Part shown: positions 2,998 to 61,635 of the stretch, in pieces
How positions within the stretch are numbered: position 1 is the first letter of the stretch
Layout of the letters: the number at the start of each line of letters is the position of its first letter
Assembly: GCA_963754985.1 (NCBI GenBank)
Contig: CAVWIJ010000001.1
Coordinates: forward strand, 97,035-161,034
Source of the DNA: an uncultured Holophagae bacterium
Lineage (GTDB): Bacteria; Acidobacteriota; Thermoanaerobaculia; Thermoanaerobaculales; Sulfomarinibacteraceae
Direction of reading: 5' to 3'
Length of the DNA: 64,000 nucleotides
Program-made: the position numbers and the translations under genes
Notes under the pieces: model-generated
What the model was told of the DNA's origin: nothing
What the model saw: only the letters and a program-made list of their open reading frames with translations
Databases searched by the model: none

Positions 2998-5900
2998 TCA
3001 CTCCGCGGTCGACGGCGGCGAGAATCCGACCGCCACGTAGGTCGGGTCGCCGGTCACGTTGTCGACGATCGACAGGTACGCGCCGACCCGGCCGTCGCCG
3101 CCGAGGATCTCCACCTCCACTCTGCCGTTCTCCATCTGGCTGAGCCCGCCCAGAGCGTGCGGCATGTCGTTGATCTGGGTGTTCCCGTACGGCGGCAGGT
3201 CAATGGTTCTCGTCCCGGCGACCGCGCCGTGCTCATCCCACAGCGTCACTCGAACCTGCGCCTGCTCCCCCCACACCTCGCAGACGCCGAGGTTCGACCG
3301 GTAGGCCGGGGAGCGAACGATGCCGCCGACCGACTGCACCTGCTCACCGTCGGTCCGCATGACGTGATAGGGCGCCAGCGGTGGGATACCCTGGCCGTAG
3401 GAGCCTTCCTCGAGGCCGGGGGTCGAGGTCCGCGAGCTCACGATGATGTCGGTTCCCCGGATCTCGAGCGACCCTGCCCCGTTCGTACCGAAGACCGTTG
3501 CGACCACGTCTTCCCAGGTGGTGCTCGAGTGGGCGCCGAGCTCCAGGTCGGCGGCGAGGTAGTCGGTGGTGCCGTCCGACTCGCGCGGCGTGTAGAAGGC
3601 CTCGACCGTTTGCGGAGAGTCGACGAGGTTGAGCACCGTGAGTGTTGTGGTCCAGAAGGTGCCCTGCGCGCCGGGCGCGTTCGCAACAGCCGGGACGAAG
3701 TAGCTGTCCGTGGAGTGGACGCCGCGTACCGGTGGCGACGAGCCACCGGCGCCGGCCCGCAGCAGGATGTCGTCGACGTGCCAGCCGTCCGCGGTGATCG
3801 CCGAGTCGGTCTCGAGGCGGAAGCGGATCCGCGCCGCGGCCACCCCGTCGAGCTGGGGAAGGTCGATCGTCACGACCTCCCACATGGTGTGGTCCCGACC
3901 GGTGTAGCTCGCCACCGTCTCCCAGGTGGCGCCGTCGTCGGACGACACCTCGACGTAGCCGTAGTCAATGTAGTAGGTCTCGAGGTCGTAGATATGGGCA
4001 AACTCGAGCGTGGTGCCGGTCATCCCGCTGAGGTCGAGAGCCGGCGAGGTCAGCGAGACGTCGCGGTTGTTCCCGTAGTGGTAGGCTGGACTGTCGGTCC
4101 ACGAGTGGGTCGGGCTGGAGAACTCCTCGGTGGTGATAGCCCACGGCGACTGGGCAGTCCAGCCGATGTTGCCGCCCTCGACGTCGTCGAACAAAACCTG
4201 CTGGTAGGGGGCGAGCTGGAAGTCGAGCGGCGTGATCACGCCGGTGGTCGCCGAGACGTCCTCGGCGGTGAACGGCGCGTAGCCGTCGGCCACCGCGTTC
4301 ACGTCATAGGTCCCGGGCGGCAGCATCAGCTGGTAGCTGCCGTCGAGCGGGTCGGTCGCGGCGGAGAACGGGCCGGCGGTCACGATCGCCGCCAGTGGCT
4401 GCCCGTCCTCGGCGCTGCGGACGTCGCCGGCGAAGTGCGGCGCTGTGGCCGGATCGAGGATCCAGAACAAGACGGCGCTGGTCGGGCCCCAGGCGCCGGA
4501 CGCATCGCGCCCGGTGGCAAAGACGGTGTGGCGGCCGGTCGCGAGGCCGGTGGTGTCGATGGTGACGGTGGCCCACTCCTGGGAGGTGTCGAAGCTGCCG
4601 TCGGCGGGTGACATCGGCGTCGGGACTGCGCCGGCCTGCCACGGCGGGGCGTCGAGGTAGGCCGCAGCCTCGGTAATGTTCTGAACCGGCTCGGAGCCGT
4701 TGCTCTGGTTGAAGCGGCTGTCGTCGAGGCGCGCCCTGAACGTGACCGGTTCCCCGGGGGCGACCACGGTGATGCCGCCGAGGTCGACCTCGGTCGCGTC
4801 CGGGCCGCCAGGGGTGAGGTAGGGCGTGCGCGCGACCTTGGCCGCGTACCGGAGCGACTCGAGGTTGTCGGGCAGGATCGTCGCCTCGAAGCTGCCGCAG
4901 TCCTGGAAGAAGTCGGTCCCTAGCTCGAAGCCGTAGGCCGCCACGCCAAGGTCGCCGAACGCGAAGTCGGTGGTGTCGCCGTCGGTGGGGTAGAGGCCAA
5001 TGGACTGGTCGGGCGAGTAACCATTGAACCAGGCGAGGCGGCGGCCGAGGGTTTGCAGCGCGGCGTTGTTGGCGGTCTGGCTCGAGACAAATCCCCACGG
5101 CCACATCACGAGCTCGCCGTAGGAGTGAATGTCGAAGTAGACGCCGGTGGTGTCGGCCGGCGCCGGCGCCCCCAGGTCGGGCGCTCGCTGGTCGGGGAAG
5201 ATGGCACGGGCGTAGGCCTCGACCGCCTGCGTCTCGGGCTCCGAGGCCGCCGTCGCCCCGCGGTAGGTTTCATCGCAGGGGTTGGTGCTCGAGCCGCCGC
5301 AGCAGCCCCACTGGAACTCGAAATTGCGGTTGAGGTCGGCGCCCCGCGAGTCCGAGGTCGACCCGCAGTAGTTCTCGTTGGTGTTCTTGCGCCAGTACTC
5401 GCCGGTCTCGGCGTGCTTGCGTCCGTCCGGGTTGGTGTACAGCACGAGGTGGATCTCGTGCTCGTCGAGCAGCCAGGTGGCGTCGGCGTCCGTGCCGTGG
5501 CCGGCGAGCAGCTGCTCGGCAAAGCGCAGCATCAGCTCGGTGGTGGTGTACTCGCGGGCGTGGATCGCGGAGGTGACGAGCAGACGCGGCTTGCCGTGGG
5601 GCGGATCGGTTCCGGTGGGTGTCCCCGGGACCGCGCTGTTGGTGAGCTTGAGGACCATCATGTCGTAGCCGGGCAGGCCACCGGCCGTGGCCTTCTCCCA
5701 GGAATCGCCGATGTCGACCAACTGGGCGAGCTCCGGGTGGGCCGCGGCGAGGGCCTGGGCGTCGGCGAAGGTCTCCTCGACGGTGCGGTAGCACGGGTAG
5801 CCCGGGATGCCCTCGGTCTGTCCCTCCAGTCGCTTGAGTGGGGTGCACAGCCGGCTTGTCATGTGCTCGTCGATCTCGAGGGAGAGACCGGCGGCCATCA

Positions 5901-6108
5901 GCCGAGCGAAGCCGTCGGCGTCGACCCCGACCACCATGAAGCCCTCGTCGTAGCGCACCTCCCACGGCTCGGTCCATGCCGCCACCGCCGCCACCTGCGA
6001 GCGGTCGGAGAACCACGCCCGGACCACGGTCGGACAGTCGTCGGCGGCCGCCATCGAGTGCGTCGCGAAGGCCACCAGCGCTACAAAGACAGAGGTCGCG
6101 ACTCGCAT
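2998..6108 (-). CDS. secreted M14-family zinc carboxypeptidase with C-terminal accessory domains
   Basis: Signal peptide MRVATSVFVALVAFATHSMAA. M14 motifs HAREYTTTE (HxxE), NPDGR, DLNRNF and DIHSYGE. These are followed by a carboxypeptidase-regulatory-like segment, a MAM/immune-inhibitor-A-like segment (GYVEVSSDDGATWE) and a 234-aa C-terminal domain (3001-3702) that recurs elsewhere in the window. An RBS GGGAGG lies 5 nt upstream of ATG 6108; the track start 6114 is GTG. Confidence 0.9.
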   Translation of the reverse strand: MRVATSVFVALVAFATHSMAAADDCPTVVRAWFSDRSQVAAVAAWTEPWEVRYDEGFMVVGVDADGFARLMAAGLSLEIDEHMTSRLCTPLKRLEGQTEGIPGYPCYRTVEETFADAQALAAAHPELAQLVDIGDSWEKATAGGLPGYDMMVLKLTNSAVPGTPTGTDPPHGKPRLLVTSAIHAREYTTTELMLRFAEQLLAGHGTDADATWLLDEHEIHLVLYTNPDGRKHAETGEYWRKNTNENYCGSTSDSRGADLNRNFEFQWGCCGGSSTNPCDETYRGATAASEPETQAVEAYARAIFPDQRAPDLGAPAPADTTGVYFDIHSYGELVMWPWGFVSSQTANNAALQTLGRRLAWFNGYSPDQSIGLYPTDGDTTDFAFGDLGVAAYGFELGTDFFQDCGSFEATILPDNLESLRYAAKVARTPYLTPGGPDATEVDLGGITVVAPGEPVTFRARLDDSRFNQSNGSEPVQNITEAAAYLDAPPWQAGAVPTPMSPADGSFDTSQEWATVTIDTTGLATGRHTVFATGRDASGAWGPTSAVLFWILDPATAPHFAGDVRSAEDGQPLAAIVTAGPFSAATDPLDGSYQLMLPPGTYDVNAVADGYAPFTAEDVSATTGVITPLDFQLAPYQQVLFDDVEGGNIGWTAQSPWAITTEEFSSPTHSWTDSPAYHYGNNRDVSLTSPALDLSGMTGTTLEFAHIYDLETYYIDYGYVEVSSDDGATWETVASYTGRDHTMWEVVTIDLPQLDGVAAARIRFRLETDSAITADGWHVDDILLRAGAGGSSPPVRGVHSTDSYFVPAVANAPGAQGTFWTTTLTVLNLVDSPQTVEAFYTPRESDGTTDYLAADLELGAHSSTTWEDVVATVFGTNGAGSLEIRGTDIIVSSRTSTPGLEEGSYGQGIPPLAPYHVMRTDGEQVQSVGGIVRSPAYRSNLGVCEVWGEQAQVRVTLWDEHGAVAGTRTIDLPPYGNTQINDMPHALGGLSQMENGRVEVEILGGDGRVGAYLSIVDNVTGDPTYVAVGFSPPSTAE

Positions 6109-6219
6109 TGGCACCTCCCGGTTGAGGGTTATTCCTCACTCTACTACCACCAAGGGAGAACCCGCGGTGAGGGCCCCTCGAAGTCCTGCCCGCGGGGCGA
6201 AGCGGAGCGGCAGAACCTG

Positions 6220-8378
6220 CTACCTGGTGGGGAGCGCCGCCTTGACCCGCGCCGGCGTGAGCGGCATCCGCAGCACCCGCGCCCCAACCGCATCGAAGAC
6301 GGCGTTGGCGATCGCCGCGCCGACCACGATGATCGCCGGCTCGCCGCCACCCTGGGGCGGGTCGTTGGGCGCATCGATGATCACCGTCTCGATCGCCGGC
6401 AGCCAGGAGAAGCGTGGAATCTCGTAGGTGTCGAAGTTGCGGTCGAGGACCTCGCCGCCCGAAAAGTGCAGCTCCTCGGCGAGGGCGTAGCCCATCCCCA
6501 TGGTGAGGCAGCCCTCCATCTGGATGACGGCGCCGGCGGGGTTGATGACCAGGCCCATGTTCTGGGCGCAGACCAGCCGCGCGACGCGGACCCGCCCCGA
6601 GACGCGGTCGACCTCGACCTCGGCGGCGAGCGCGACAAAGGTGCCGGCATCAATACCGCAGGCGATGCCCTGGCCGCGTCCGCTCGGCGCCTTTGCGGGC
6701 CGCCAGGAGAAGCGGTCGGCGGCCGCCTGCAGCACGCCGCGCATCTTCGCGTCGCTCAGGTTGCGCAGCCGGAACTCGACGGGATCGAGTCCGGCCGCAG
6801 CCGCCAGGATGTCGACGTGCGACTCGCGCGCGAAGGTGTTGGTGTTGTTCCCGGGCGCCCGCCAGGCGCCGGTCGCGAAGGGGTGGGTGCCCGGCCCGCC
6901 CCGCCAGCCCGCCGGCGCGGCCACGGTCCGGTGGTGCGGCACGTCGTAGAACTGGTCCGCGCCGCGATCACCGGCGAAGTAGACCAGGTAGTCCCAGTAC
7001 GCGATGCGGCCGGCGGGGGTGACGCCAGCGTCGATCGTCACCACGGCGGCCGGCCGGAAGGTGTCGTAGAAAAACTCCTCGGCCCGGGTCCAGGCCACCT
7101 GCACGGGCCGTCCGGTGAGCCGGGCCAGCCTGGCGGCCTCGATCGCCTGGCGGTTCGCCGTCTTGCCGCCGAAGCCGCCGCCCACGAATGGCGGGACCAC
7201 CCGCACCGCATCCTCGGGCAGGGCGAGCGCCTGGGCCGCCTCGGCCCGGAGCGGGTACGGTGTCTGGGTCGACGCCCAGATCGTGAGCCGATCGTCCTCG
7301 AACGCCGCGACCGCGGTGTGGGTCTCGATGGCCGCGTGGGCGCGGTAGCCATCGTGGTAGGTGTGACGGGCCGCGGCGCTGGCGGCGGCGCGGCCGGCCG
7401 CGAGGTCGCCGCCCTCGGCCACGGTCTCGCCCGCCGGCGCCACCTTGACGAGGTGGTCGAAGATACTGTCCTGGTCGAGCTCGGAGCGGGGCGAGTCCCA
7501 CGTCGCGCGCACCCGCGCGAGCGCCTGCTCCGCGCCATCCGGGGTCGGGTGCAGCACGGCGATCAGATCGCCCTCGCGGACCACCGTCGCCCCATCCACC
7601 CCGGCGACAGCGGAGACGTCGACCTCCCGGAGGGTGGCGCCGTGCGCGGGCGGTCGCAGCAATCGGGCATAGAGCATGCCGTCGCGCCGGAGGTCGCCTG
7701 CGTACTGAGCGCGGCCGGTGACCTTGACCTCGGCGTCGCGGCGCAGCACCGGCCGGCCCACCACCTGGAAGTCGGCGACCGGCTCGAGCGCCGCCTTCCG
7801 GCCGAGGCGACGGCCGATCGCCTGGCCTTTCGCGAGCTCTGCGTAGCTGAGGCCGCGGGCCGGGTCGGTTGTGTCGACGATTCGCCCTGCTCGCGCCGCC
7901 AAGCGCTCCCGCGGAAGCTCCAGCCGGTCGGCCGCGAGATCGATCAGCACCTCCCGGGCCTCGGCCGCGGCGGCGCGCAGCGGCGGCCCGAAGAAACGCG
8001 TGGTCATCGAGCCGAAGGTGCCCATGTCCCACGGGCAGATGTCGGTGTCGCCCATCGTCATGTCCACCGACTCGAGCGGCACCTCGAGCTCGTCGGCCAA
8101 CATCTGCGCCAGCGACGTGACCACGCCCTGGCCCATCTCGATCTTGCCGGTGAAGCCGGTGACCCGCCCGTCCTCGCCGATCCGCAGGAAGGCGTTGAAG
8201 TCCGCGGGCAGCTCCCGGGCGAGTGACAGGCGTGGCGGCCCCTGCTCGAGGGCGAGCAGGTCACGGGCCGACACCGCCACCACGATCCCGCCGCCGAACA
8301 GGCGCAGGAACCGGCGGCGGCTGACCTCGGTCGGAGGCTCGAGGTCGAAGAAGGGAAGGAGCTCGTCGTGATGGCTGG

Positions 8379-8382
<4 letters not shown>
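6220..8382 (-). CDS. molybdopterin-binding oxidoreductase large subunit (IorB / aldehyde oxidase-xanthine dehydrogenase family)
   Basis: The true start is MTSHHDELLPFFDLEPPTEVSRRRFLRLFGGG (Tat-like SRRRFL). The track ORF 6220..8787 is an N-terminal over-extension into the upstream gene. Family motifs present: GKIEMGQGV, FVGGGFGGK, GEPAI. The ATG overlaps the upstream stop (ATGA at 8382-8379). Confidence 0.9.
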
Positions 8383-8861
<479 letters not shown>

Positions 8862-8891
8862 GGGGACTCCCCGACCTGGCTTCTCTATTCT

Positions 8892-10633
8892 CTATCCACG
8901 CAGCGCGGACGCAAATATTCCCGGAACGTGCCGCCACCCGGGATCGGCGGCGAAGGCGGCGACCCGGCGCGCGGTCACGTGCGCGGTGCGGTTGGTCACG
9001 AACCACGGCGGCTTCGGCAGCATGCTCGGGTCCCCGTGCATCCAGCTGCGCGGGAAGGGGTAGAAGGGGCCACGAACCACCGTCTTCTGCGGCCTGTCGA
9101 AGAGGAAGCTGTTACGGACGACACCGATACCGCTCCCGATGTCCTCGAGGGTGTGCCCGGGGTAGGCGCCCCAGGTCGCCTGGGCGAGCATGAAGGCGAT
9201 GGCTGCCCACACGTTGACGCCGACCGCGCCGTACTCGAGGGCGGCGATCGCACGATCCAGGGCGGGACCGGCTTCGCGCATGGTCGCTGGGTGGACAACC
9301 AGACTTGCTCCGAGCGTGCCGGCGAGATGCCGGTTGCAGAACGCCGTGGCGTTGTCGAGGAAGCTGGGGACGTCGTTGCCCGGCAGCTCGACCTCGGCAA
9401 GAACCTCGCCGAAGGCCTCGCTCGAGAAGCAGTGCTCGGCCGCAGCCTCGGCGTCGAGACCGGTTATCAGCGTGCGTGGCACCTCGCCCGTGAAGAGCTC
9501 GGCGTCGGGGTGGGCCGCGGCTACCCCCCGCTGGCGATCCGCCGCACCGGGATAGAACGCGGCCCGCGGCGGCAGCTCGCGCATCAGCCGCCGCACCTCG
9601 TCGAGGAACGCGCACCGCAGCGGCCACTCTCGGGGCAGCACCAGCACCTGGGCGGCGACGCAGTTGCAGCCACCGTTGTGCAGCTTCATGGCGGCCACGT
9701 GCTCGGCCTGATAGCGCAGGTCGGTCTCCGACCACGGACCGGGAACGACGATGACCGGGCAAACGCCACCGAGCTCGCTGGTGATCGGCTTGCCGAGCAG
9801 GGGCTCGCCGCTTCGCCGGCGGGCGGCAGCCTGCTCCCCAATACCCCAGACGATCGCGTCGTGGGTCGCGGCGCTGCCGGTGATGTGGACCTCATCGATG
9901 CCGTCGTGTCGCACCAAGTAGTCGCCGACCTCGGCGCCGCCGCCGACCACGCGTAGGAAGCCCGCTGCCACGAATGGCTCGAACACCTCCTCGAGAATGC
10001 CCGCCAGGTAGGCGTTGACCGGGCTCATCTTGAGCAGCACCACCTGGCCGCGCGCGATCAGCCGGTAGAGCGCATCGAGCGGCGGGATGCTGTTGACGTT
10101 GCCCGCCCCGAGCACGAGCGCCACCCGACCGCGCGGGTCGCGGCTCCCGGTAGATACCGGGCGACGTGCTCGGCGAGCTCGGCGGCGGCAACGCCCGGCT
10201 GCATCCAGACCTCCGCCGTGATGCCGCTCAGCAGCAGCCGGTCAAAGACCGAGCGCGGGAAGACCGGCACGACGACGCGTCCGTCGTCACGGGTCGTGAC
10301 CCCCTTGAACTCGGGCAGCCGCCCGGCGGCGAGCGCGGACAGCGTATCGACGTAGCCGCTGGCGGCGGCCGCCACGGCGTAAGGGCCGCCCATCCACTCC
10401 TCGCCGACCCACGGCGAGCGCGGGTCGATCCGCTTGGCCGCCACCGACGCATCCACCCAGCGCTTGCCGCACCTGCCGAGGTTGCGGCGGGTCGCCAGGA
10501 GCATCGCCACCTTGCGGTCGACCCCGAGCCTCGCCCACTCGTCGGCGTGGGATCGGAGCTCGCCGATCGCACGGTCGAGGCTGGTGCGATCCACCGCGCT
10601 GCCGGTGTCTGAGCCGACCGTGGAGTTTCCCAT
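8892..10633 (-). CDS. aldehyde dehydrogenase family protein, one apparent frame disruption near 10130
   Basis: Track ORFs 10058..10633 (MGNSTVGSD...AEHVARYLPG) and 8892..10124 (ALVLGAGNVNSIPPLD...ELGGVCPVIV...GGCNCVAAQ) are the N- and C-terminal parts of one ALDH-fold protein. In the alternative frame the junction reads GSRDPRGRVALVLGAGN. RBS AAGGAGG lies upstream of ATG 10633. Confidence 0.8.
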
Positions 10634-48121: not shown

Positions 48122-49093
48122 TCACGGCCCGATGAGGGCCAGCAGCCCGGCCAGACCGAGGACGCCGAGCAACGCGGCGAGGACTGCGAGCACGACGCGG
48201 GCCACCGAGATCGGCGCGTCGCCGACCAGGCACGCGGCATCCTGACCGGACAGCACACACCGGTGGAGGACGCCGCGGTAGCGGTAGGCAATGACCCAGG
48301 CCGGGAAGCCGAGGCGCCGCGTGACCAGCCGCCGCGCCAGCACCGAGGTGTGGACGTTGCGGAAGCGGCGGCCGGGGATGATTCCGTCCTGCAGGCGCTT
48401 GGCCACCAATCGCTCGAGCTCGGACCGGACGTGCCGCCGCGCCGCGGCCCGCCGCAGCTCGAACTGCTCGACCACGACCTCGGGATCATCGCCTGGCTCC
48501 CGTTCGCGGGCGCTGCGGAGGTCGTAGCTCGGCAGCAGGCGGGAGGTCTCGCGAGCCGTCAGCCCACGCGACGCGGAGACCACAATGCCGTCGAGCTCGA
48601 GCTCGGTTTGGCCCGCGTGCGGAGCCCAGTCAGCGCGCGAGGCCCCGGCGTCGGAGTCGGCCGTCCAACTCACCAGGGTGTCGACGTCGAACGCCCACCC
48701 CACCCACCACAGGGCGCGCAATGACTCGAGCCGACTCGCCGATCGCAGGTCGGCCGGACGGAACCAGCCGAGGCTGCCCTGCCACTGCCGGAAGCTCTCC
48801 TCGGCGCGCGATCGATCAACGGTGAACGGCAGGACCAGTCCGGCCTGCTCCAGCGGGTCCTCGGGAAGCTCGAGGTGGACGATCGAGCCGCAGAACGCGC
48901 ACTGGGGAGCGCGCGCCGTGACGTTGTACGAGACAGCAGCGCCGCAGCCCTCGCAGCGCAGCACCTCGACCGTCGCCTCGGCTCGGTCGTCCTGGACCGT
49001 CGCCGGAGCAGCGGCGCCACAGACGGCGCAGCGCAGGTCGCCGTCCTCGAACGGGCTCGTGCAGCGCCGGCAGGAGACGGCCTCGGAGGTCAC
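48122..49093 (-). CDS. double zinc-ribbon, C-terminally membrane-anchored protein (paralogue B)
   Basis: The GTG start overlaps the upstream stop (GTGA at 49093-49090). CRRCTSPFEDGDLRCAVC and CEGCGAAVSYNVTARAPQCAFC are two CxxC...CxxC ribbons. PAWVIAYRYRGVLHRCVLSGQDA precedes the C-terminal TM helix VVLAVLAALLGVLGLAGLLALI. Confidence 0.75.
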   Translation of the reverse strand: MTSEAVSCRRCTSPFEDGDLRCAVCGAAAPATVQDDRAEATVEVLRCEGCGAAVSYNVTARAPQCAFCGSIVHLELPEDPLEQAGLVLPFTVDRSRAEESFRQWQGSLGWFRPADLRSASRLESLRALWWVGWAFDVDTLVSWTADSDAGASRADWAPHAGQTELELDGIVVSASRGLTARETSRLLPSYDLRSAREREPGDDPEVVVEQFELRRAAARRHVRSELERLVAKRLQDGIIPGRRFRNVHTSVLARRLVTRRLGFPAWVIAYRYRGVLHRCVLSGQDAACLVGDAPISVARVVLAVLAALLGVLGLAGLLALIGP

Positions 49094-49989
49094 AGCAGCC
49101 GTCCGACGAGAACGATCAGCCCGGACAGGCCGGCGATCGCGGCCGCGATCAGGGCAAGCTTGGTCCACGACAGCGGAGTCACTCCCCAGACCTTGCCGGT
49201 CTGCCCGTTGACGACGAAGCGGACCAGTGGCTTGCGCGGGTGGTAGCGCAGCGCGACGACCCACACCGGCAGCAGGATGAGGTCGGCGGACTCATGGCGC
49301 AGCGTGGTGCGGCAGGTCGTGCCGCGGTGCGTGTCACCGGGCAGGAAGCTCTCGATGATCCCGGCAGCTCGCTGCCGAACCTCCTCGCGAGCGAGCCGGA
49401 GGCAATCATCACGGGCGAGGGACGGCTCCTCCGCGATCCAGCCGGACAGCAGGGCTGGCGAGTAGCCGACCAGCGCCGCGAGGTCGAACGGCTCGATGGC
49501 CTCGAGCTCGGCGTTGGCAAGGCCGCGCGAGGCCGTCACCACGGTGTCGGTGACGTAGGACGCGTGCCGGCCCGCGAGGTCGCGGTACTCGATCTCGCGC
49601 ACCCGGCGCAACCGCTTCGAGGACAGGTCGATTTTTGTCCGCTCGTAGGCTTCACCGACCTTCGCGGAGTACTCAATGTCGACGGCAGCCGAGTAGAGAT
49701 AGGCCGGCAGGTAGATGCCCTGGACCCGCTCCGCCGCCGCCCGCCGCAGGCCCGACGGCGCCAGCCACTTGCCGCGCAGCCAGCTGCGGATCGCCGCGAT
49801 CGCCCGCCGCCGGTCGACCGAAAAACCTACCGTGAACACCGGGAGTGGCCGATCGGTTGTCGCCGGTCGATCCACCACCGACGGCGAGTCGCAGTAGGGA
49901 CAGCGCGCGGTTCGCAGCAGCGGCTCGATCAGGATGGTCGCTCCGCACGACGAGCACGCGATCTCGAGCTGCTGGCCCACTGTAGCCAC
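49090..49989 (-). CDS. zinc-ribbon, C-terminally membrane-anchored protein (paralogue A)
   Basis: CSSCGATILIEPLLRTARCPYC is the ribbon. LPVWVVALRYHPRKPLVRFVVNGQTGKVWGVTPLS precedes the C-terminal TM helix LALIAAAIAGLSGLIVLV. Confidence 0.78.
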   Translation of the reverse strand: MATVGQQLEIACSSCGATILIEPLLRTARCPYCDSPSVVDRPATTDRPLPVFTVGFSVDRRRAIAAIRSWLRGKWLAPSGLRRAAAERVQGIYLPAYLYSAAVDIEYSAKVGEAYERTKIDLSSKRLRRVREIEYRDLAGRHASYVTDTVVTASRGLANAELEAIEPFDLAALVGYSPALLSGWIAEEPSLARDDCLRLAREEVRQRAAGIIESFLPGDTHRGTTCRTTLRHESADLILLPVWVVALRYHPRKPLVRFVVNGQTGKVWGVTPLSWTKLALIAAAIAGLSGLIVLVGRLL

Positions 49990-50244
49990 GGCGATCAGTC
50001 TACCCGGAGACGAGGCCCGGGTTCGGCGACCGGAGGGAAGCCGTCTCGAAGCCGGCTCGACCGGGCGGTCGACCAGGCGCCCGGGCGATCGCGGAAAGCT
50101 GGACCCGCGCCGAGATGCCGCCCGATTCTCGGGGCAGCGGGGCAGCGATGGACGAGCACCTGGTGCATCGCTCCCGGTCAGTCACGCTCGAATTCGGGTC
50201 CGCGGCTCGGCAGTGCGCGCGGCGTATTCCCAAATTCCGAGCAG

Positions 50245-50282: not shown

Positions 50283-50365
50283 CATTCGCGACTGAAGCCG
50301 ACAGCTAGTGTCGGGAGGGGAGATCCGGATGCGCATCAGGAATCAGGTTGGGGGAGGGGTTGGTG

Positions 50366-51861
50366 ATGGCAGTGGAGTCGATGCGCCACACAGCTGCGAT
50401 GTTCCTCGGACTCGCGATCTGCGGCGCTGCCAGCCTGGAAGGCTACGAACGGTACAGCCAGAACGACGACGCCACCTGGTGCCGGGAGTGTCACGGCGAC
50501 TTCCGGGCCACGAACTATGTGTCGCTGGTTGACGGACTTCCCTGGGGCAACCTCCACAACGTGCATCGCTCGACCATGCTCGGCAGTGACTGCGAGGCCT
50601 GCCACATCGGCAGCTCGCGACTGCCGGTCTACCTCGACCAGTCGACCGGTGGCATCGGACTCGAGCCCGTATCGTGTGTCGGCTGCCATGGCGTCAACCC
50701 GTCGCCGGGCAATCCGAGCACGGGCCTGTGGGGAGCCGGCCTGCGCGCTCACCACACCAACGCCGGGGTCGGTCCCGACTCCGACGGGCTTCGCTGCCTG
50801 GACTGCCACAGCAACGATCCGCCGCCGCCGCCCGAGAACGTGCCCCCGTCATACTACTTCTCACCCGACCCGGCCCATCCGAGCAAGCCGACCAACCCCT
50901 GCAACCCGGCGCCGGGGTTCCCGGAGCACTATGCCGCGAGTGTGATCGGCCTCGATAACGACGGCGACCTGCTCTACGACGAGGTCGATCTGAGCTGTGC
51001 GGCAGTACCGACCAGCACGCCGACACCGACCTCCGTGCCTCCCCCGACGAGCACGCCCACCAGAACTCCGACGGCAACGGTAACACCCACCCCGACCGTC
51101 ACGCCGACGGCGACCCGCACCGCAACCACAACTCCGAGCGCGACCACGACCAGCACGCCGACTCGAACTCCCACGAGCACCCCAACGAGCACGGCGACGG
51201 CGACGGCGACGGCGACCCGACGCTCGACACGCCGACGCCGACACCAACCAGAACGCCAACGAGCACGTCCACGAACACCGCCACCGCAACGGCGACGCCG
51301 AGCGCGACCACGACCTCGACGCCGACCCGAACGCCAACGAACAGCGCGACCAGCACCCAGACCAGCACACCCACACCGACGCCGACGACAACCCCGACGA
51401 GCACCCCGACCGCGACGGCGCCGCCGGGCGCCACGCCGACCCATACGCCGACCAACACGCCGACCCGAACGCCAACCAACACAGCGACCGGCACCCCGAC
51501 CAGCACGCCGACTCGAACACCAACGAGCACCCCCACGAGCACCGCGACCGCGACGCCGAGCTCGACGCCGACCAGCACACCGACTCACACCCCCACTTCG
51601 ACGGCGACGAGCACACCGACGCGGACCCCGACCGCATCGGCAACCCCGAGCCCGTCGCCGACCGGCACGGCCACGCCGACACCATCCCCCACCAACACAT
51701 CGACCCCGACGACGACCCCGCCGTCGCCCACGGTCACTTCGACTCCGACCGCCACACCGACTCCTGGCCCACCGCTGATCTTCAGCGACGGCTTCGAGTC
51801 CGGGGATCTTTCGGCGTGGAGCGAGGGCCACACCCTCAGGGTTTTGAGGATCACGGGATGA
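50366..51861 (+). CDS. secreted tetraheme c-type cytochrome with ~255-aa Pro/Thr linker and conserved C-terminal tail (copy 1); one frame disruption near 51215
   Basis: Signal peptide [26 protein letters not shown]. Four CxxCH motifs (WCRECH, CEACH, CVGCH, CLDCH) and a DNDGD motif. The PT-rich linker continues in the -1 frame after (ACGGCG)4 at 51191-51214. The true end is [30 protein letters not shown], with the stop at 51859-51861. The Arg/Pro-rich tail of track ORF 50348..51778 is an out-of-frame reading. Confidence 0.85.
51005..51772 (+). repeat. Pro/Thr-codon low-complexity coding repeat (linker of cytochrome copy 1)
   Basis: A continuous run of ACN/CCN codons ([27 protein letters not shown]...), including a perfect (ACGGCG)4. 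Confidence 0.85.
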
Positions 51862-51970: not shown

Positions 51971-52903
51971 ATGAGAGTATTTCGTTTGAACGCCGCCGCG
52001 GCGGCGCTGCTCGCCGTTGCGATCACCGGCGTCACCACCGTGCACGGCTACGAGCGGTACAGCCAGAACGACGACGCCACCTGGTGCCGGGCGTGCCACG
52101 GCGACTTCCGGGCCGACAACTACGTGTCGCTGTCCGACGGGCAGCCGTGGGGCAACCTCCACGAGGTCCACCGATCCACGATGCTCAGCGGGGACTGCGA
52201 CGCCTGTCACATCGGGAGCTCGCGGTTGCCGGTGTACCTCGATCAGTCCACCGGCGGCGACGGGCTGGAGCCCAAGTCCTGCGTCGGCTGCCACGGCGCC
52301 AACCCTTCACCGGGCAACCCGAGCACGGGCCTGTGGGGAGCCGGGCTCAGGGCTCACCACGCCAACGCCGGGATCGCCAGCTGCGCGACCTGCCACTCCG
52401 GCGACCCGACCCCGCCGGCCGAGAACGTGCTCCCGTCGTACTACTTCTCGCCCGACCCGGCCCATCCGAGCAAGCCGACGGATCCCTGCAACCCGGCACC
52501 CGGCTTTCCGGAGCACTATGCGGCCAGCGTGATCGGCCTCGACAACGACGGCGACCTGGTCTACGACGAGGCCGACCCGAACTGCGGGGTGCCTCCCACC
52601 GCGACGCCGACGAGAACGCCGACCCGCACACCGACGCCCACTGCGACCAGGACGCCGACCGCGACGCCGACCGGCCCGCCGACCTTCACGCCGACCCCAA
52701 CACCGACGCCCACGGCAACCGGCACGCCGCCCCCACCGACCTTCACGCCGACCCGGACCGCAACCCCGACCGTGACGCCGACCCCGACCCCTGATCCGGA
52801 CCTGCTGTTCGGGGATGGCTTCGAGTCCGGCGACATCTCGGCGTGGAGTGGTGGAGTGAAGGCCGCCGCCGTGGCGGCGGCGGGGGACGCCAATCCGCTC
52901 TGA
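51971..52903 (+). CDS. secreted tetraheme c-type cytochrome with ~70-aa Pro/Thr linker and conserved C-terminal tail (copy 2)
   Basis: Signal peptide [26 protein letters not shown]. Four CxxCH motifs (WCRACH, CDACH, CVGCH, CATCH) and DNDGD. The PT linker is at 52589-52798, followed by [18 protein letters not shown]. About 80% identical to copy 1 over the heme domain, by eye. Confidence 0.9.
52589..52798 (+). repeat. Pro/Thr-codon low-complexity coding repeat (linker of cytochrome copy 2)
   Basis: [67 protein letters not shown]. Confidence 0.85.
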
Positions 52904-53114: not shown

Positions 53115-56100
53115 ATGACTCGGAAGGCGCTCGGATCGGTCGGTTCGAGGCATTTTGGTGTTCTGTTCCTGCTCGCGGTCATCGCCGCCGGCGCTCTTCT
53201 GGTGACCGCCTCGGGCCGCGAGGCCGCTCCGCCGGCGGGAAACGCCGGACCCGCCGCGGCGAAGCTGCTCGTGCAAGGCTCCACGCTGTTTCTGCCCGGC
53301 GCAGCGCACGTCACAGGAGCCGCCGATACCAACTGGCGGACCGACCTCGAGGTGTACAACAACGGAGCGGTCATGGCCCAGTACGAGATCGCCCTGCTCG
53401 AGCGGGACCAGGCCAATCTCCAGCCGGCCACCGCCACCTTCAGCCTGCAGCCGGGGCGCTCGGTGCGCTACAACGACGTCCTGTGGACGGTGTTCGGGTT
53501 CAACGGATCGGCGGCGCTGCGAGTCTCGGCGCTGAGCGGCGCGGTGATGGTCTCGAGCCGCACCTACAACCAGACCGCAATCGGCACCTACGGCCAGTAC
53601 ATCGGCGGCGCGTTGGAGTCGCGGGCGATCGCGTTCGGGCAGCAGGGCCGCATCATCCAGCTCACCCACAATCAGGGCACCACCATCGGCTACCGAACCA
53701 ACGTCGGCTTCGTCAACACAACGTCGTCACCGATGGTCGTACGGGTCGACCTGTTCACGTCGGACGGCGTCCTTCTGGGGACGAGGTCGTACAACCTCGA
53801 GGCGTTCATGTTCACCCAGAAGGAGCGCATCTTCGGCTCGGTGACCCAGGGCGACGTCAGCGACGGCTACGTCGTGGTCTGGACCGAGACCCCGGGTGCC
53901 GGCTTCTTCGCGTACGCCTCAGTGGTCGACAATCGGACCGGCGATCCGATCTACATCCCGGCCTCGGTGATGGGGGGATCGACCCAGCCGACCCCAACTC
54001 CGACCCGCACCACGACCGGCACGCAGCCGTCGACGCCGACGCCGACCCGCACCCCGACGCGCACGATGACGCGCACGCCGACCAGTCACGCCGACCCAAC
54101 CCGGAGCAGGGTTCAACCTGCGCCCCTACCAGCCGTCAGGATGGGACGGCCCCGCTCGTCGCGTCCGGGCAGGCGGGGACCCACACCTCGGGCGGGCTCG
54201 TCGGCGGAAGCCCCACCTACATGGATGTCGCCTTTGCCAACGACGGTCCGGACAGCGTGTTTGTTCCCGCGAACAGCGATCTGGTCGAGATTCTGTTTGA
54301 CGGCACCTCGATCGGGTACCTTCGAAATCAGAATGCGTTCGATTTGCCGGCGGCGCCAACCTATGTCTACTGGGAGGATGTGCAGATCAACGGCGTTTCT
54401 GCTGGCCAACATACCTTCACAATGGTGGTCGATCCGCTGGACATCTTCACAGAGAGCAACGAAGGGGACAACAGCTACATCTACACCGGGACCTGGAGCG
54501 GCCTCAAGGCAGGGGGCATCGCAGTACCGAAGCCACACCTCCTGGACGGCGACCAGATGCGGTTGGCGCCGATCCCGGACCACGCGGGCGACACGCTCTG
54601 GGGCCGTCCGGTCGAGGAGTACGCGCAGAAGCGCGCCCTCGTGCCCCACGGCAGGACGGGGGTTCGCGTCGGCGGAACGAAGCTGGTCGGCGAGACGGTG
54701 TACATCGCAGCCACCGCGCACGTGGCCGGTGCTGCGGGAACGAACTGGCGGACCGATCTCGAGCTCCACAACCCGGGGTCGACCCAGGGCCAGTACCAGA
54801 TCGCGCTCCTGCGGCGCGACGAGAACAACGCGTCGCCGGCGACGGCGGTGTTCTCGGTGCCCGCCCAGCGTTGCCTCCGCCTCGCGGATGTGCTGTTCAA
54901 CGTCTTCGGGTTCACGGGAGGGGCGGCGCTGCGCGTCACGCCGCTGAGCGGCGATGTGATGGTGACCAGCCGGACCTACAACCTGACCGACCAGGGGACC
55001 TACGGCCAGTTCATCGGTGGCAAGGCCGAGTCGGAAGCGATCGATCACGGCGAGGACGGCGTCGTCATCCAGCTCTCCCAACAGCCGGGCACGGCCAGCG
55101 GCTACCGGACCAATCTCGGCTTCGTGAGCAGCGTCGGCTCCCAGATCACGGTGGCCGCCGACATCTACCGGTCCACCGGGGAGCTGCTGGGCACCCAGAG
55201 CTACACCCTGCCGCCCTATGGGTACAAGCAGGTCGATCGGATCTTCCAGTCCGTGACCCAGGGTGAGGTCGCCGACGGCTACATCGTGGTCCGGACCACC
55301 ACGCCGGGAGGTCGCTTCTTCGCGTACGCCTCGGTCGTGGACAACGCGACGGGCGACCCGATCTTCATTCCGGCGACCATGCGCGCTGGTGGCGGCCCGC
55401 CGCAGACGCCGACGCCGACGCCGACCCTCGGCCCCGCCGTGCCGCTCGACCCGCTGGTCGTCGTGCAGGAGCTGTTCGACTGGCTCGCCACCGTCGGCCA
55501 GGGCGACGTCATGAGCTTCGAGGAGGCGGCGGCGCAGATCCAGACCTATGGCCTGCAGGCGGCGCTCAATCAGGTTGCCATCGATCTGCCGGGGGTGGTC
55601 ACGGTCGGTCCGTACAGCCTGCAGTTCGACTTCCCGCCCGGCTACGTGTCACCGGACGGCTACGAGGTCAGCGGGCTGGCCGACGTCAGCTTCACGAGCG
55701 TCAACACCAACGCCCCCAACCTCTCCGCCGACTTCTCGGGCGGCCAGCAGGGCCTCCGCGTGAACGGCGGCGCCTTCATGATCGAGAACGCGAGCGGGAG
55801 CATCGACCTGGCGACCGATGCGCAGGGCCACGTGCAGGGCGCCGTGACCTTCAGCGGAACCGGCGACATCCCGTTCCTCAAGTCGGCGAGCACGATCGAC
55901 GGCGACATCCAGGTGGACACCGAGATCTGCCCGAACTACCCGATCGGCGGCCAGATCGTCCTCCAGCGCGAGGAGGGCCGGCACGAGTTCAACTTCGACG
56001 ACTGCGTGCGACGGCACCTTCGTCTACATCGGGCCGGGGCAGACCGGCGCGCTGGCGTTCCGGCTGCGCTGGCAGGGCCCGCAGGACATCGACCTCTACG

Positions 56101-56409
56101 TGCGGGAGCCCAACGGCGAGGTGATCTACTACGGCTTCCCGGTGTCGACCACGGGAGGACAGCTCGACGTCGACGCCAACGCCGGCTGCAGCGGGCCGGA
56201 CCCGGACCCGACCGAGAATGTCTTCTGGCCGGAAGGCATGGCGCCCGCTGGAACCTACCAGTTCTGGGCGGATCTGTGGTCGGACCTGCGACGGGTCGGA
56301 AACGCCGGCGGTCACGCTCTATGTGATCCGAGCCGGGGTCATCGACCGCACGATCAACACCTCGATCTCGGGCGGCCAGACCGCGACCTACGACTACCAG
56401 TACCCGTGA
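53115..56409 (+). pseudogene. ~1100-aa mosaic secreted protein (two copies of the recurrent ~220-aa domain, CARDB-like segment, YfaP/DUF2135-like C-terminal domain), at least 4 frame disruptions
   Basis: The N-terminal anchor/signal is MTRKALGSVGSRHFGVLFLLAVIAAGALLV. Domain copy 1 is at 53283-53964, followed by a PT linker. GAGFNLRPYQPSGWDGP sits in a second frame and LVASGQAGTHTSGG...NEGDNSY in a third. Domain copy 2 is at 54698-55382. The C-terminus, reconstructed across shifts near 56005 and 56290, reads CDGTFVYIGPGQTGALAFRLRWQGPQDIDLYVREPNGEVIYYGFPVSTTGGQLDVDANAGC...ENVFWPEG...TYQFWADLWSD|CDGSETPAVTLYVIRAGVIDRTINTSISGGQTATYDYQYP. The stop is at 56407-56409. Confidence 0.8.
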
Positions 56410-56422
56410 TGGCGACGTGATG

Positions 56423-56455
56423 ACGGGGACCCCGCAGCCCGAGCGCGGGGTCCCC
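56423..56455. terminator. 13-bp perfect-stem hairpin between convergent genes (putative bidirectional terminator)
   Basis: ACGGGGACCCCGC-AGCCCGA-GCGGGGTCCCCGT lies 14 nt after the stop at 56409. Only a weak T-run follows. Confidence 0.5.
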
Positions 56456-56559
56456 GTTCTGCACTCCGGTGGTGTCCGTGTTCACTCGTGACGGGAGCGT
56501 GGCAGCACTCCGGGCGGATGCGGATCACATCGCTCACGAGGTCATTCGACGCGGAGGTG

Positions 56560-57708
56560 TTACTCGGGGTGGACGCGGCGGCGGGCCGCGATCTTGAGGC
56601 TCTCCCACATCAGCCAGCCGCGCATCGCCGCACCCTTGAGCCGGCCGTGGCGGTGGTCGATGCGCGCGAGGCTCCAGTCGATCAACGTGCCTGGCGGAGT
56701 GAGCTGGTCGGTCACGGGCCGCGACACGAGCCGGATCGCATCGAAGGAGCAGGACAGCGCGCACACACCGCAGCCGATGCACCGCGTCCGGAGTCGACCA
56801 CGTAGCCGTCGTCGCCGGCGCTGATCGCCTCGACCGGGCAGCGGCCGCCGTCGCAGTCGCCGCACTCCGAGCAGAGCTCGCGGTCGATGACGGACACGTA
56901 GTTGGAGCGGGCGAGCATGTAGGGTGCGCCATGGTCGTTCACGGCGCGCAGGAAGCCGCAGCAGCAGGAGCAGCAGTTGCAGACGAAGAACGGCTCCCGC
57001 TGGACGTTATAGGTGCAGTGGACGAGGCCCTCCTCCTCGAGGCGATCGAGCAGCTCCAGGGCCTCCTGGCGGGTGATCTCGCGCCCCCACTCGGGCATGC
57101 CCTCGTAGGCGTTCGGCTCCTTCGAGAACGACATGCAGGTCTCGCTCGTGTGGCTGCAGGGTTTGCCGAGCAGGGCCTGCTCCTTGCGGCACAGGCAGTC
57201 GGCAACGCGGAACGAATTGCAGCGCCTCGAGCATCACCTTGAGGTCGTCGTAGGGCAGGACCTCGGCGCGGGCCTCGATGCGGCGGTGGACGGGGACGAC
57301 GCGGGCGAGCGCGGGCGCCACCGATCCGAGGGTGCCGAGCAGAACCGGCGCGTAGGCCTCGAAGAGCTCCGCGAGCTCGCGGTCGAGGTGGTTGAGCTGG
57401 AACTCCCAGATGCCGACGATGAACGGTGCGAGCCCGTAGTAGCGGCGGCCTCGCAGCCGGAAGCTGAAGATCTGCCCGCGCTCGGCCATGCCATCGAGGG
57501 ACTCCCGCACCTCGCCGGTGGGCCGGCGGAGCCGGCGTCCGACCATGGCCGCGGTCTCGGGCAGCGGCTTGAGCCGCAGCGCCATCGCGGCATCCTCGGG
57601 CGAGAAGATCTTGCGCAGGATGGCGAGCTCGACACCACTGTCGGTGGCCGGGAAGCCGTGAGGCAGCCCGTCGAGCACCTTCGCCAGCCTCTGGTAGACG
57701 TCGGCCAT
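56560..57708 (-). pseudogene. 4Fe-4S dicluster/Cys-rich ferredoxin-like protein with N-terminal winged-helix-like region, 2 frame disruptions
   Basis: MADVYQRLAKVLDGLPHGFPATDSGVELAILRKIF..., then a shift near 57218 to NSFRVADCLCRKEQALLGKPCSHTSETCMSFSKEP...FFVCNCCSCCCGFL...CSECGDCDGGRCPVEAI, then a shift near 56785 to CIGCGVCALSCSFDAIRL. The gene is split in the track as 57007..57723, 56712..57134 and 56560..56865. Confidence 0.75.
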
Positions 57709-57776
57709 AGTCTCTCTTCGCACGTCAGTCGACCGGCCCGGCGCGGAGGCGCGCTGCGATCAACCGCGCGACACCG

Positions 57777-57914
57777 TCACTCCTCTGGCTCGCTGGGCCC
57801 GGCATCGCCCTCCTTCTTTTCGATCCGGCGCGCGCGCTTGTCGGCCTTCTTCTGCTGCTTCTCGACCTCTCGCCGCCGCTTCTCGAACTTGTAGGATCCG
57901 GTCTTGCGTGGCAC
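57777..57914 (-). CDS. possible 45-aa highly basic small protein
   Basis: Below the track size cut-off. GTG 57914 is preceded by GGAGGGAG. The protein is MPRKTGSYKFEKRRREVEKQQKKADKRARRIEKKEGDAGPSEPEE. No family recognised. Confidence 0.35.
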   Translation of the reverse strand: MPRKTGSYKFEKRRREVEKQQKKADKRARRIEKKEGDAGPSEPEE

Positions 57915-60774: not shown

Positions 60775-61635
60775 TCAGTCCGGGCAGTCGAGCTCGTCGG
60801 TCGGCGCGGCGTAGATGAACTCGCCGTCACCGGTGCCGTCGGGGTTGCCGTCGACCTTGGACACGTAGCTGACGAACATGTTGGGGAAGTCCGCGTTGCA
60901 CGGGTCGGGAGTCTGGCTTGCTGGATCGAGCCAGAGCTCGACGGTCAGCGGACCGTCGACCCTGCCGACCCCGAGCTGAGCGAACGACCACTGACGGACG
61001 CTGGCCGTGGGGACCGGCTTGATGCCCTCGACGAGAGTCGCGCCGTCTGCTGCCAGGATGCGGTAGTGCACCTGGATCTCCTCGGAGAGCGACAGGTTCA
61101 CGATCCCCAAGTTGGAGCGGAAGCGCACGTCGTTGCGCGCGCCGGTCGCGATCGAGGGCCACCACGCGGCGTTGTAGGTGAAGTCGAGCGCCGGCACCGT
61201 CTGGCCGAAGGTCCCCAGGGGGCTGCCAACGTTGTAGGTGCGGGTCACCGCCGCATAGTCGTCGTCCTCCGGATTCGCCGGGATCAGGTCATGGTCGCTC
61301 GAGGTGAGCAGCGCCCCCTTGACGTCGGTGGCATAGCCGAACAGGCCGTGCAGCACATCCTCGAGGATCACCGTCTCACGGGCGTCGAGCATGACGCGCA
61401 TCGGGAAGAGGGGGTTGAACACGTTGGCCTGGTCGGCTGGAAAGAACTGCAGACCGACGGTCAACGCGTAGTCATGGGGGTTGTACATCGTCAGATCGCT
61501 CACCCATTGGGTCCCGCCCACGCCCGCGGTGCGGGCCACGATCGGGAAGAACTGGAAATCCGACACCTGTTGGCCGGCGACAGGCAGTGCCGCGCTGAGA
61601 ACGGCCAATCCCAGCAGCTGCGAACGCCACGACAT
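60775..61635 (-). CDS. secreted single-domain member of the recurrent ~220-aa domain family
   Basis: The signal peptide MSWRSQLLGLAVLSAALPVAGQQ is followed by FFPIVARTAGVGGTQWVSDLTMYNP...VTRTYNVGSPLGTFGQTVP...VRFRSNLGIVN...FVSYVSKVDGNPDGTGDGEFIYA. This aligns with 3001-3702, 53283-53964 and 54698-55382. Confidence 0.8.
   Translation of the reverse strand: MSWRSQLLGLAVLSAALPVAGQQVSDFQFFPIVARTAGVGGTQWVSDLTMYNPHDYALTVGLQFFPADQANVFNPLFPMRVMLDARETVILEDVLHGLFGYATDVKGALLTSSDHDLIPANPEDDDYAAVTRTYNVGSPLGTFGQTVPALDFTYNAAWWPSIATGARNDVRFRSNLGIVNLSLSEEIQVHYRILAADGATLVEGIKPVPTASVRQWSFAQLGVGRVDGPLTVELWLDPASQTPDPCNADFPNMFVSYVSKVDGNPDGTGDGEFIYAAPTDELDCPD

Follow-up and report, generated by a model that had tools for sequence, protein, structure and literature searches.

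A widespread module of secreted Acidobacteriota proteins is modelled as a fused pair of ASRT/TM1070-like beta-sandwiches

Secreted proteins of an uncultured Holophagae bacterium (GenBank assembly GCA_963754985.1) contain a module of ∼225 residues that is predicted to fold as two fused beta-sandwiches, each resembling TM1070 and ASRT, the two proteins from which the ASRAH superfamily was defined by De Souza, Iyer and Aravind in 2009 (PMC2739507). The module was analysed in a stretch of 64,000 nucleotides of contig CAVWIJ010000001.1 (positions 97,035 to 161,034 of the forward strand; G+C content ∼70%), hereafter the window. It is a widespread, uncatalogued module of secreted Acidobacteriota proteins, that is, a new family with a known fold and superfamily and not a new kind of domain or system, and it fits the description of a further, acidobacterial ASRAH family of fused pairs. 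We propose, with evenly balanced confidence, that this ASRAH sandwich pair is a non-catalytic module that binds sugar or polysaccharide and tethers its fusion partners to glycan.

Four copies of one module in the window

The segment occurs in exactly four copies, at the positions where a preliminary description of the window, made from the sequence alone, had placed them. The copies are as follows, with the evidence for each in brackets (HMM, hidden Markov model).

53283-53964, plus strand: copy 1, N-terminal domain of a mosaic protein (translation, alignment, HMM match, AlphaFold2)
∼53283-53630 and ∼53631-53963, plus strand: N-terminal and C-terminal sandwiches of copy 1, respectively (AlphaFold2, hhalign)
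54698-55382, plus strand: copy 2, internal in the mosaic protein (alignment, HMM match)
3001-3702, minus strand: copy 3, C-terminal domain of a secreted M14 carboxypeptidase (alignment, HMM match)
60793-61554, minus strand: copy 4, body of a stand-alone protein of 286 residues (alignment, HMM match)

The preliminary description had taken the four segments to be homologous along their full length, and this is borne out by their translations, by a MAFFT alignment that runs from end to end with 32 invariant columns, and by BLASTP, in which every pairwise comparison among the copies is significant (E values from 3e-91 to 4e-7). Identity is 59-60% between copies 1 and 2 and 25-30% for the remaining pairs; copy 3 is the most degenerate, with Thr replacing both D21 and N96, and copy 4 contains insertions relative to copies 1-3. 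The landmark motifs that had been listed in order, xHVxGAxGTxW(R/T/V)(T/S)DL..N, SRTYN, GTYGQ, (Y/F)R(T/S)N(L/V)G and AYxS(V/I)VDNxTGDP, were all found. When all six frames of the window were searched with an HMM of the four copies, only these four were retrieved. Since they lie in three unlinked genes across 58 kb, the copies do not represent a local gene cluster.

Each half of the module resembles TM1070 and ASRT

The structure of copy 1 was predicted with AlphaFold2 from a 74-sequence alignment, yielding an all-beta model of high confidence (predicted local distance difference test score (pLDDT) 96.3, predicted template modelling score (pTM) 0.91). The model contains 8-9 strands and one short helix that follow in the same order twice, in residues 2-108 and 121-226. 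Alignment of the N-terminal with the C-terminal half by hhalign gave a probability of 84-89% and E values of 2e-6 to 8e-6, and pairs WRTDLEVYN in the first half with YRTNVGFVN in the second. Given the repeated strand order and the alignment of the halves, the 225-residue ‘domain’ is therefore best described as an internally duplicated pair of sandwiches.

Comparison of the whole model with the PDB by Foldseek returned one meaningful match, Thermotoga TM1070 (1nc7), with a target TM-score of 0.74, a root mean square deviation (r.m.s.d.) of 3.8 Å and a probability of 1.0. The C-terminal half modelled on its own (pLDDT 96.6) has the same best match (TM 0.65/0.63, probability 1.0; 109 alignment columns for a query of 111 residues), followed by chains 2ii7-2iia of ASRT, the Anabaena rhodopsin transducer, all at a probability of 1.0, and then by the carbohydrate-binding modules (CBMs) 5fu2, 5aos, 7zvo and 2zez. 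On these models the module has a two-sandwich fold in which each sandwich is similar to TM1070 and ASRT. The preliminary description had attached no family name to the module and had proposed AlphaFold with Foldseek for fold assignment; the fold so assigned is that of paired TM1070/ASRT-like sandwiches, which gives each half relatives among the ASRAH proteins. Further matches of the whole model, to RbmA, SGBP-B, GH2 enzymes and birnavirus VP2, were rejected as generic two-sandwich similarities (TM below 0.25, r.m.s.d. above 15 Å). A polysaccharide-lyase (PL7-like) assignment, considered on the basis of RT(D/E)L-type motifs, was dropped, since the 50 best matches of each model include no lyase.

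The CBMs that provide the next-best structural matches (5FU2 and 5AOS from Ruminococcus flavefaciens, BT0996-C 7ZVO and CBM16 2ZEZ; TM ∼0.4-0.55) resemble the module in their appended, position-independent use in secreted enzymes, often with Pro/Thr linkers. They differ from it in strand topology (PMC2739507) and share no sequence similarity with it, and for the module binding is a prediction only.

Comparison with the ASRAH superfamily

In the ASRAH sandwich a signature second strand with a terminal conserved Asn lines a ligand cleft that is completed at the dimer interface; in TM1070 this strand carries an SHEshChhN signature lining the cleft at that interface, and TM1070 and ASRT are both tetramers. 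Extracellular members of the superfamily always occur in pairs or in fours, the pairs in an actinobacterial lipoprotein encoded beside WhiB, a glycosyltransferase and an inactive zincin, and the fours in amidase fusions of Chloroflexi (PMC2739507).

The module shares with ASRAH (PF07100; 1NC7; 2II7-2IIA) beta-sandwich halves of ∼110 residues that match TM1070 and ASRT best among solved structures, a conserved Asn that closes the signature strand, the presence of two or four sandwiches in an extracellular protein, and a predicted ligand cleft on strand 2. The signature itself is different, reading (W/Y/F)R(T/S)(D/N)hxhhN in the module as opposed to SHEshChhN in ASRAH, with R/D/N instead of H/C. 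Moreover, the two sandwiches of the module are permanently fused and mutually diverged, unlike those described for ASRAH, and they form a mobile part of large secreted multidomain Acidobacteriota proteins, an architecture absent from the three families of 2009. The candidate signature-strand residues are N26 (83% conserved) and N145 (82%, with Ser in 17%), each of which stands just after strand 2 of its sandwich. PF07100 (ASRT) gave one weak match (E=0.035), in one relative, placing the strand-2 Asn near the conserved Asn of the family; no significant sequence match to PF07100 or to ASRT/TM1070 in the PDB was obtained among the copies and relatives searched.

The tetramers of TM1070 and ASRT, in which the dimer interface forms the walls of the cleft, would also suit a module whose paired sandwiches oligomerise and so gather secreted proteins in a surface layer or a matrix without a glycan ligand. 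Adjacent pairs of units are common, stand-alone secreted copies are conserved across the order, and the top whole-model Foldseek match by E-value is the biofilm matrix protein RbmA. We nevertheless consider self-association unlikely as the function. The match to RbmA (TM 0.22, r.m.s.d. 19 Å) reflects a shared two-sandwich layout only, the intramolecular pair already satisfies the dimer interface, and the invariant residues (D, R, N, Q) have polar or charged side chains rather than forming the hydrophobic patches that are typical of stable interfaces.

Conserved residues and the proposed binding function

Conservation was determined from 525 domain instances, in which 14 positions are at least 94% invariant: G12, W18, D21, R93, T94, N96, G104, Q105, R138, N140, G142, Q179, D216 and D221. 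The polar subset comprises D21, R93, N96, Q105, R138, N140, Q179, D216 and D221. In the second sandwich, R138, N140 and G142 take alternate positions on strand 2; D21 is on the equivalent strand of the first, and by analogy with TM1070 the face that carries them would be the one lining the cleft. It is because the conserved residues would map to this TM1070-like face that non-catalytic glycan binding and tethering is the function we favour. The module would then bind its ligand, most probably a sugar or polysaccharide, without turning it over, and would tether the fused M14 peptidase, LVIVD propellers, PKD/CARDB arrays and FGE-sulfatase domains to a glycan, which could belong to the cell's own envelope, to an exopolysaccharide or to a polymeric substrate. 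The fused pair would provide one or two TM1070-like clefts within a single chain, and directly adjacent pairs of units would mimic the TM1070 tetramer. A portable ‘binding or anchoring’ role had been suggested in the preliminary description; it is plausible and agrees with the sugar binding predicted for the superfamily, and it is a role that we infer.

So unusual a density of invariant charged and polar residues, together with the existence of stand-alone secreted forms, might instead point to a catalytic function, such as that of a lyase or hydrolase acting on glycans or of an enzyme that modifies peptides, in which the invariant R, D, N and Q would be the catalytic residues. This is improbable. 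No catalytic beta-sandwich fold ranks near the top of the structural matches (GH2 entries have target TM-scores of ≤0.1), the consistent matches are the non-catalytic TM1070/ASRT proteins and CBMs, the domains to which the module is usually attached are enzymes or repeats in their own right, and the copy in the M14 protein has lost two of the invariant residues, D21 and N96.

Relation to curated families

Scans of the four window copies against Pfam-A and NCBIfam gave no model at threshold, and from NCBIfam no match to them was obtained. In NCBI and JGI the proteins are named ‘hypothetical’ or after other domains (SUMF1/FGE, RCC1, PKD). The only Pfam model to detect the family is DUF5719 (PF18986; gathering threshold 26.2 bits), which scores copy 1 at 11.2 bits and copy 3 at 15.6 bits and does not match copies 2 and 4. 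In two sets of relatives it has 7 matches among 74 proteins and 3 among 37; the best E value is 2.5e-8, and a few relatives are at the cut-off (26.2-26.8 bits). These matches fall on two separate regions of the DUF5719 HMM, ∼54-140 and ∼164-309, as is consistent with the pair of sandwiches in the window module. DUF5719 is probably the actinobacterial cell-surface lipoprotein with two ASRAH domains, and the two-region sequence matches are consistent with its being this ASRAH pair. The window copies differ from DUF5719 in scoring below its cut-off, in having neither the N- and C-terminal extensions nor the lipobox, and in belonging to Acidobacteriota, where they occur in a promiscuous domain context and without the WhiB, glycosyltransferase and inactive-zincin neighbourhood. 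A literature search on DUF5719 found nothing. PF25839, precomputed for the relative P0007, was not reproduced by the local Pfam search.

The statement in the preliminary description that no Pfam or InterPro name applies to the module therefore holds for Pfam-A and NCBIfam models at threshold, and is to be qualified by the ASRAH-like fold and the borderline matches to DUF5719. Since DUF5719 has no known function and the match to it is below threshold, the module does not correspond to a curated family of known function.

Family size and taxonomic distribution

When the four-copy profile was searched against 1.84 billion cluster representatives (clusters at 50% identity), 8,158 proteins matched at E≤1e-3 and 2,433 at E≤1e-30. 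A pattern-seeded scan of one genome per species, in which the use of a narrow alignment skews the taxonomic picture to close relatives, identified 195 relatives, nearly all of them in metagenome-assembled genomes (MAGs) labelled Thermoanaerobaculia, ‘Holophagae’ or Acidobacteriota. Several MAGs contribute 3-6 loci each among the best 80 relatives. As far as sampled, the family lies almost entirely within Thermoanaerobaculia MAGs. The earlier suggestion of a family ‘expanded locally’ is thus misleading: the family has expanded throughout the lineage, with several loci in a Thermoanaerobaculia MAG and a total of 8,158 clusters. The neighbourhoods of stand-alone and PKD-fused homologues revealed no conserved or informative context.

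Host proteins and domain architectures

In the window the module is carried by three genes, listed here with their coordinates.

2998-6114, minus strand: gene for a secreted M14 carboxypeptidase of 1,038 residues with copy 3 at its C-terminus
53115-56405, plus strand: gene for the mosaic protein, interrupted by single-base insertions (frame analysis, tblastn, indel map)
60775-61635, minus strand: gene for a stand-alone protein of 286 residues with a signal peptide, carrying copy 4

The proteins begin with hydrophobic segments that resemble signal peptides or anchors, and Pro/Thr linkers flank the units. Pfam domains of the M14 protein are Peptidase_M14 (residues 119-401), CarboxypepD_reg (563-634) and a MAM/Reelin-like region (681-786); this M14-fused subtype is rare, with 14 matches. 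The stand-alone protein has orthologues of 280-300 residues (54-92% identity) across Thermoanaerobaculales MAGs, all labelled ‘hypothetical’ and none with a Pfam match. Two other stand-alone proteins, P0050 and P0093 (268-271 residues, from other metagenomes), end in a near-identical tail, VVFE(S/A)F(L/M)RPG, that is absent from the window copies and could be a sorting or processing signal.

Architectures were surveyed in the 150 best-scoring representatives, a list that is biased to two-unit proteins because the scores of the units add. Two units are present in 146 of the 150. They are directly adjacent in 109 (7-30 residues apart), making four sandwiches in a row, and some 25 pairs are separated by a spacer of 190-250 residues, as in the mosaic gene of the window; this spacer has a weak CARDB match in the mosaic gene and in several close relatives. 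Among the 300 instances in these proteins 65 are N-terminal, 164 internal and 71 C-terminal, and the partner domains are all extracellular: PKD, LVIVD/beta-propeller, CARDB, FGE-sulfatase, Kre9_KNH, CBM96 (alongside the module in 2 of 37 relatives), Big_1/2, invasin, Kelch, FG-GAP and PPC. These counts and partners support the earlier observation, made on the window, that the module occurs in N-terminal, internal, C-terminal and stand-alone form in secreted proteins.

Co-occurrence with Ig-like domains of the spacer type and with Pro/Thr linkers would also be expected of a passive structural spacer or stalk, possibly stabilised by Ca2+, like PKD, Big or CARDB, in which the polar residues serve folding or metal binding only. 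A metal could be bound by the conserved D, N and Q residues and by the DNxTGD loop, and the strand-2 Asn of the ASRAH fold was assigned a purely structural role by De Souza et al. (PMC2739507). Spacer domains, however, rarely keep 14 near-invariant positions at 25-30% identity, and conserved stand-alone secreted versions imply that the module has a function of its own, which makes a mere stalk quite unlikely. The C-terminal position in the M14 peptidase and in 71 of the 300 instances, and the restriction of the family to one lineage, could similarly be read as those of a secretion, sorting or covalent-anchoring signal analogous to the C-terminal domain of the type IX secretion system. This is highly improbable. 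Unlike a sorting signal, the module is as often N-terminal or internal and is frequently present twice per protein, positional data that effectively exclude such a role; at 225 residues it is also far larger than known sorting domains, and the NCBIfam sorting-domain models do not match it.

The mosaic gene and its surroundings

The mosaic protein consists of an N-terminal hydrophobic anchor or signal, copy 1, a Pro/Thr linker, a weakly CARDB-like region, copy 2, a second Pro/Thr linker and ∼340 further residues. In the window the reading frame of copy 2 differs from that of copy 1, and the gene encodes one protein only after about four single-base corrections. Its integrity elsewhere is apparent from L001, a syntenic relative from the ‘uncultured Holophagae’ MAG MFD00032.bin.2.196, in which positions 5833-9123 are ∼89% identical in nucleotide sequence over the mosaic gene and contain one intact open reading frame for a protein of 1,096 residues. 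In a DNA alignment with L001 the window has extra single bases near 54083-54086, 54150 (CCC to CCCC), 56004 and 56285 (C to CC), and by tblastn the intact orthologues P0127 and P0131 (∼1,100 residues) are collinear with the window across three frame changes. The ‘mosaic protein’ of the preliminary description is accordingly intact in the ∼89% identical L001, and in the window it requires the ∼four frameshift corrections. The CARDB match of its spacer is weak in the L001 orthologue (E=0.0086) and reaches 3.7e-8 in relatives. The C-terminal ∼340 residues after copy 2 (55430-56405, plus strand; L001:8101-9120) are conserved in P0127 and P0131 and match no Pfam family, and so represent a second unannotated region of the same protein.

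The region 54000-57800 is dense in frameshifts, and long genes elsewhere in the window are intact. Next to the mosaic gene, an Fe-S protein gene with two 4Fe-4S motifs (56560-57723, minus strand) is apparently split over three frames. The frameshifts in this region are probably local indel errors of a long-read assembly; true gene decay, leaving pseudogenes, is possible. At 48125-50181 (minus strand) there are two overlapping open frames of 360-390 residues with faint zinc-ribbon matches only, 89% identical to L001 with 4 gaps, which may be one frameshifted gene or two adjacent genes. Tandem paralogous multihaem cytochrome c genes are found at 50348-51800 and 51971-52903 (plus strand), each followed by a long Pro/Thr-rich linker, and are represented by a single copy at the related locus L001; the second ends with a 17-residue motif. 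The strong AT skew at 48-52 kb is due to the Pro/Thr codons of the cytochrome c linkers.

Discussion

Several observations weigh against the assignment of the module to ASRAH-type glycan-binding sandwiches. When PDB sequences were searched with profiles of the whole domain and of its C-terminal and N-terminal halves, neither ASRT nor TM1070 was found (the matches, among them PBP1a, L-amino-acid oxidase and DUF3244 at E=0.1, are at chance level), and because of this the link to ASRT rests on the fold and on borderline HMM matches. The equivalence of N26 and N145 to the ASRAH strand-2 Asn would follow from a register set by motif spacing and by one weak PF07100 alignment, that of P0002. Where the ASRAH hallmark is a Trp at the start of strand 1, the first sandwich has Tyr or Phe (67%) near that point and the second has no such residue, and the invariant W18, although preceded by a polar residue, opens strand 2 and not strand 1. 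Sugar binding by ASRAH proteins is itself only predicted (PMC2739507); ligand binding by the module, a sugar as its ligand, and tethering are proposed by analogy. Stand-alone members have no conserved sugar-metabolism or polysaccharide genes in their neighbourhoods, and invariant charged residues in such unusual number would also fit catalysis or metal binding.

A more specific form of the glycan-tethering proposal is that the module is a dedicated surface-attachment device of Thermoanaerobaculia, in which a lineage-specific fusion of two ASRAH sandwiches recognises one particular glycan, of the envelope or of an exopolysaccharide, and displays dozens of secreted enzymes and adhesins per genome. 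This is something of a long shot. If true, it would be a Gram-negative, acidobacterial counterpart of SLH or CWB2 anchoring, and ASRAH would gain its first family whose ligand is defined.

More than 8,000 clusters of proteins (at 50% identity) that are now called ‘hypothetical’ or named after their partner domains can be described as containing a fused ASRAH-type pair of sandwiches, and the module is clearly suited to a new Pfam/InterPro entry, which would share a clan with ASRT and DUF5719. It is small and confidently modelled and has 14 near-invariant residues that could be mutated, which makes it a tractable extracellular system for the sugar-binding prediction made for ASRAH in 2009. Thermoanaerobaculia are a largely uncultured class of Acidobacteriota that is common in soils and sediments, and the module is relevant to their cell-surface biology.

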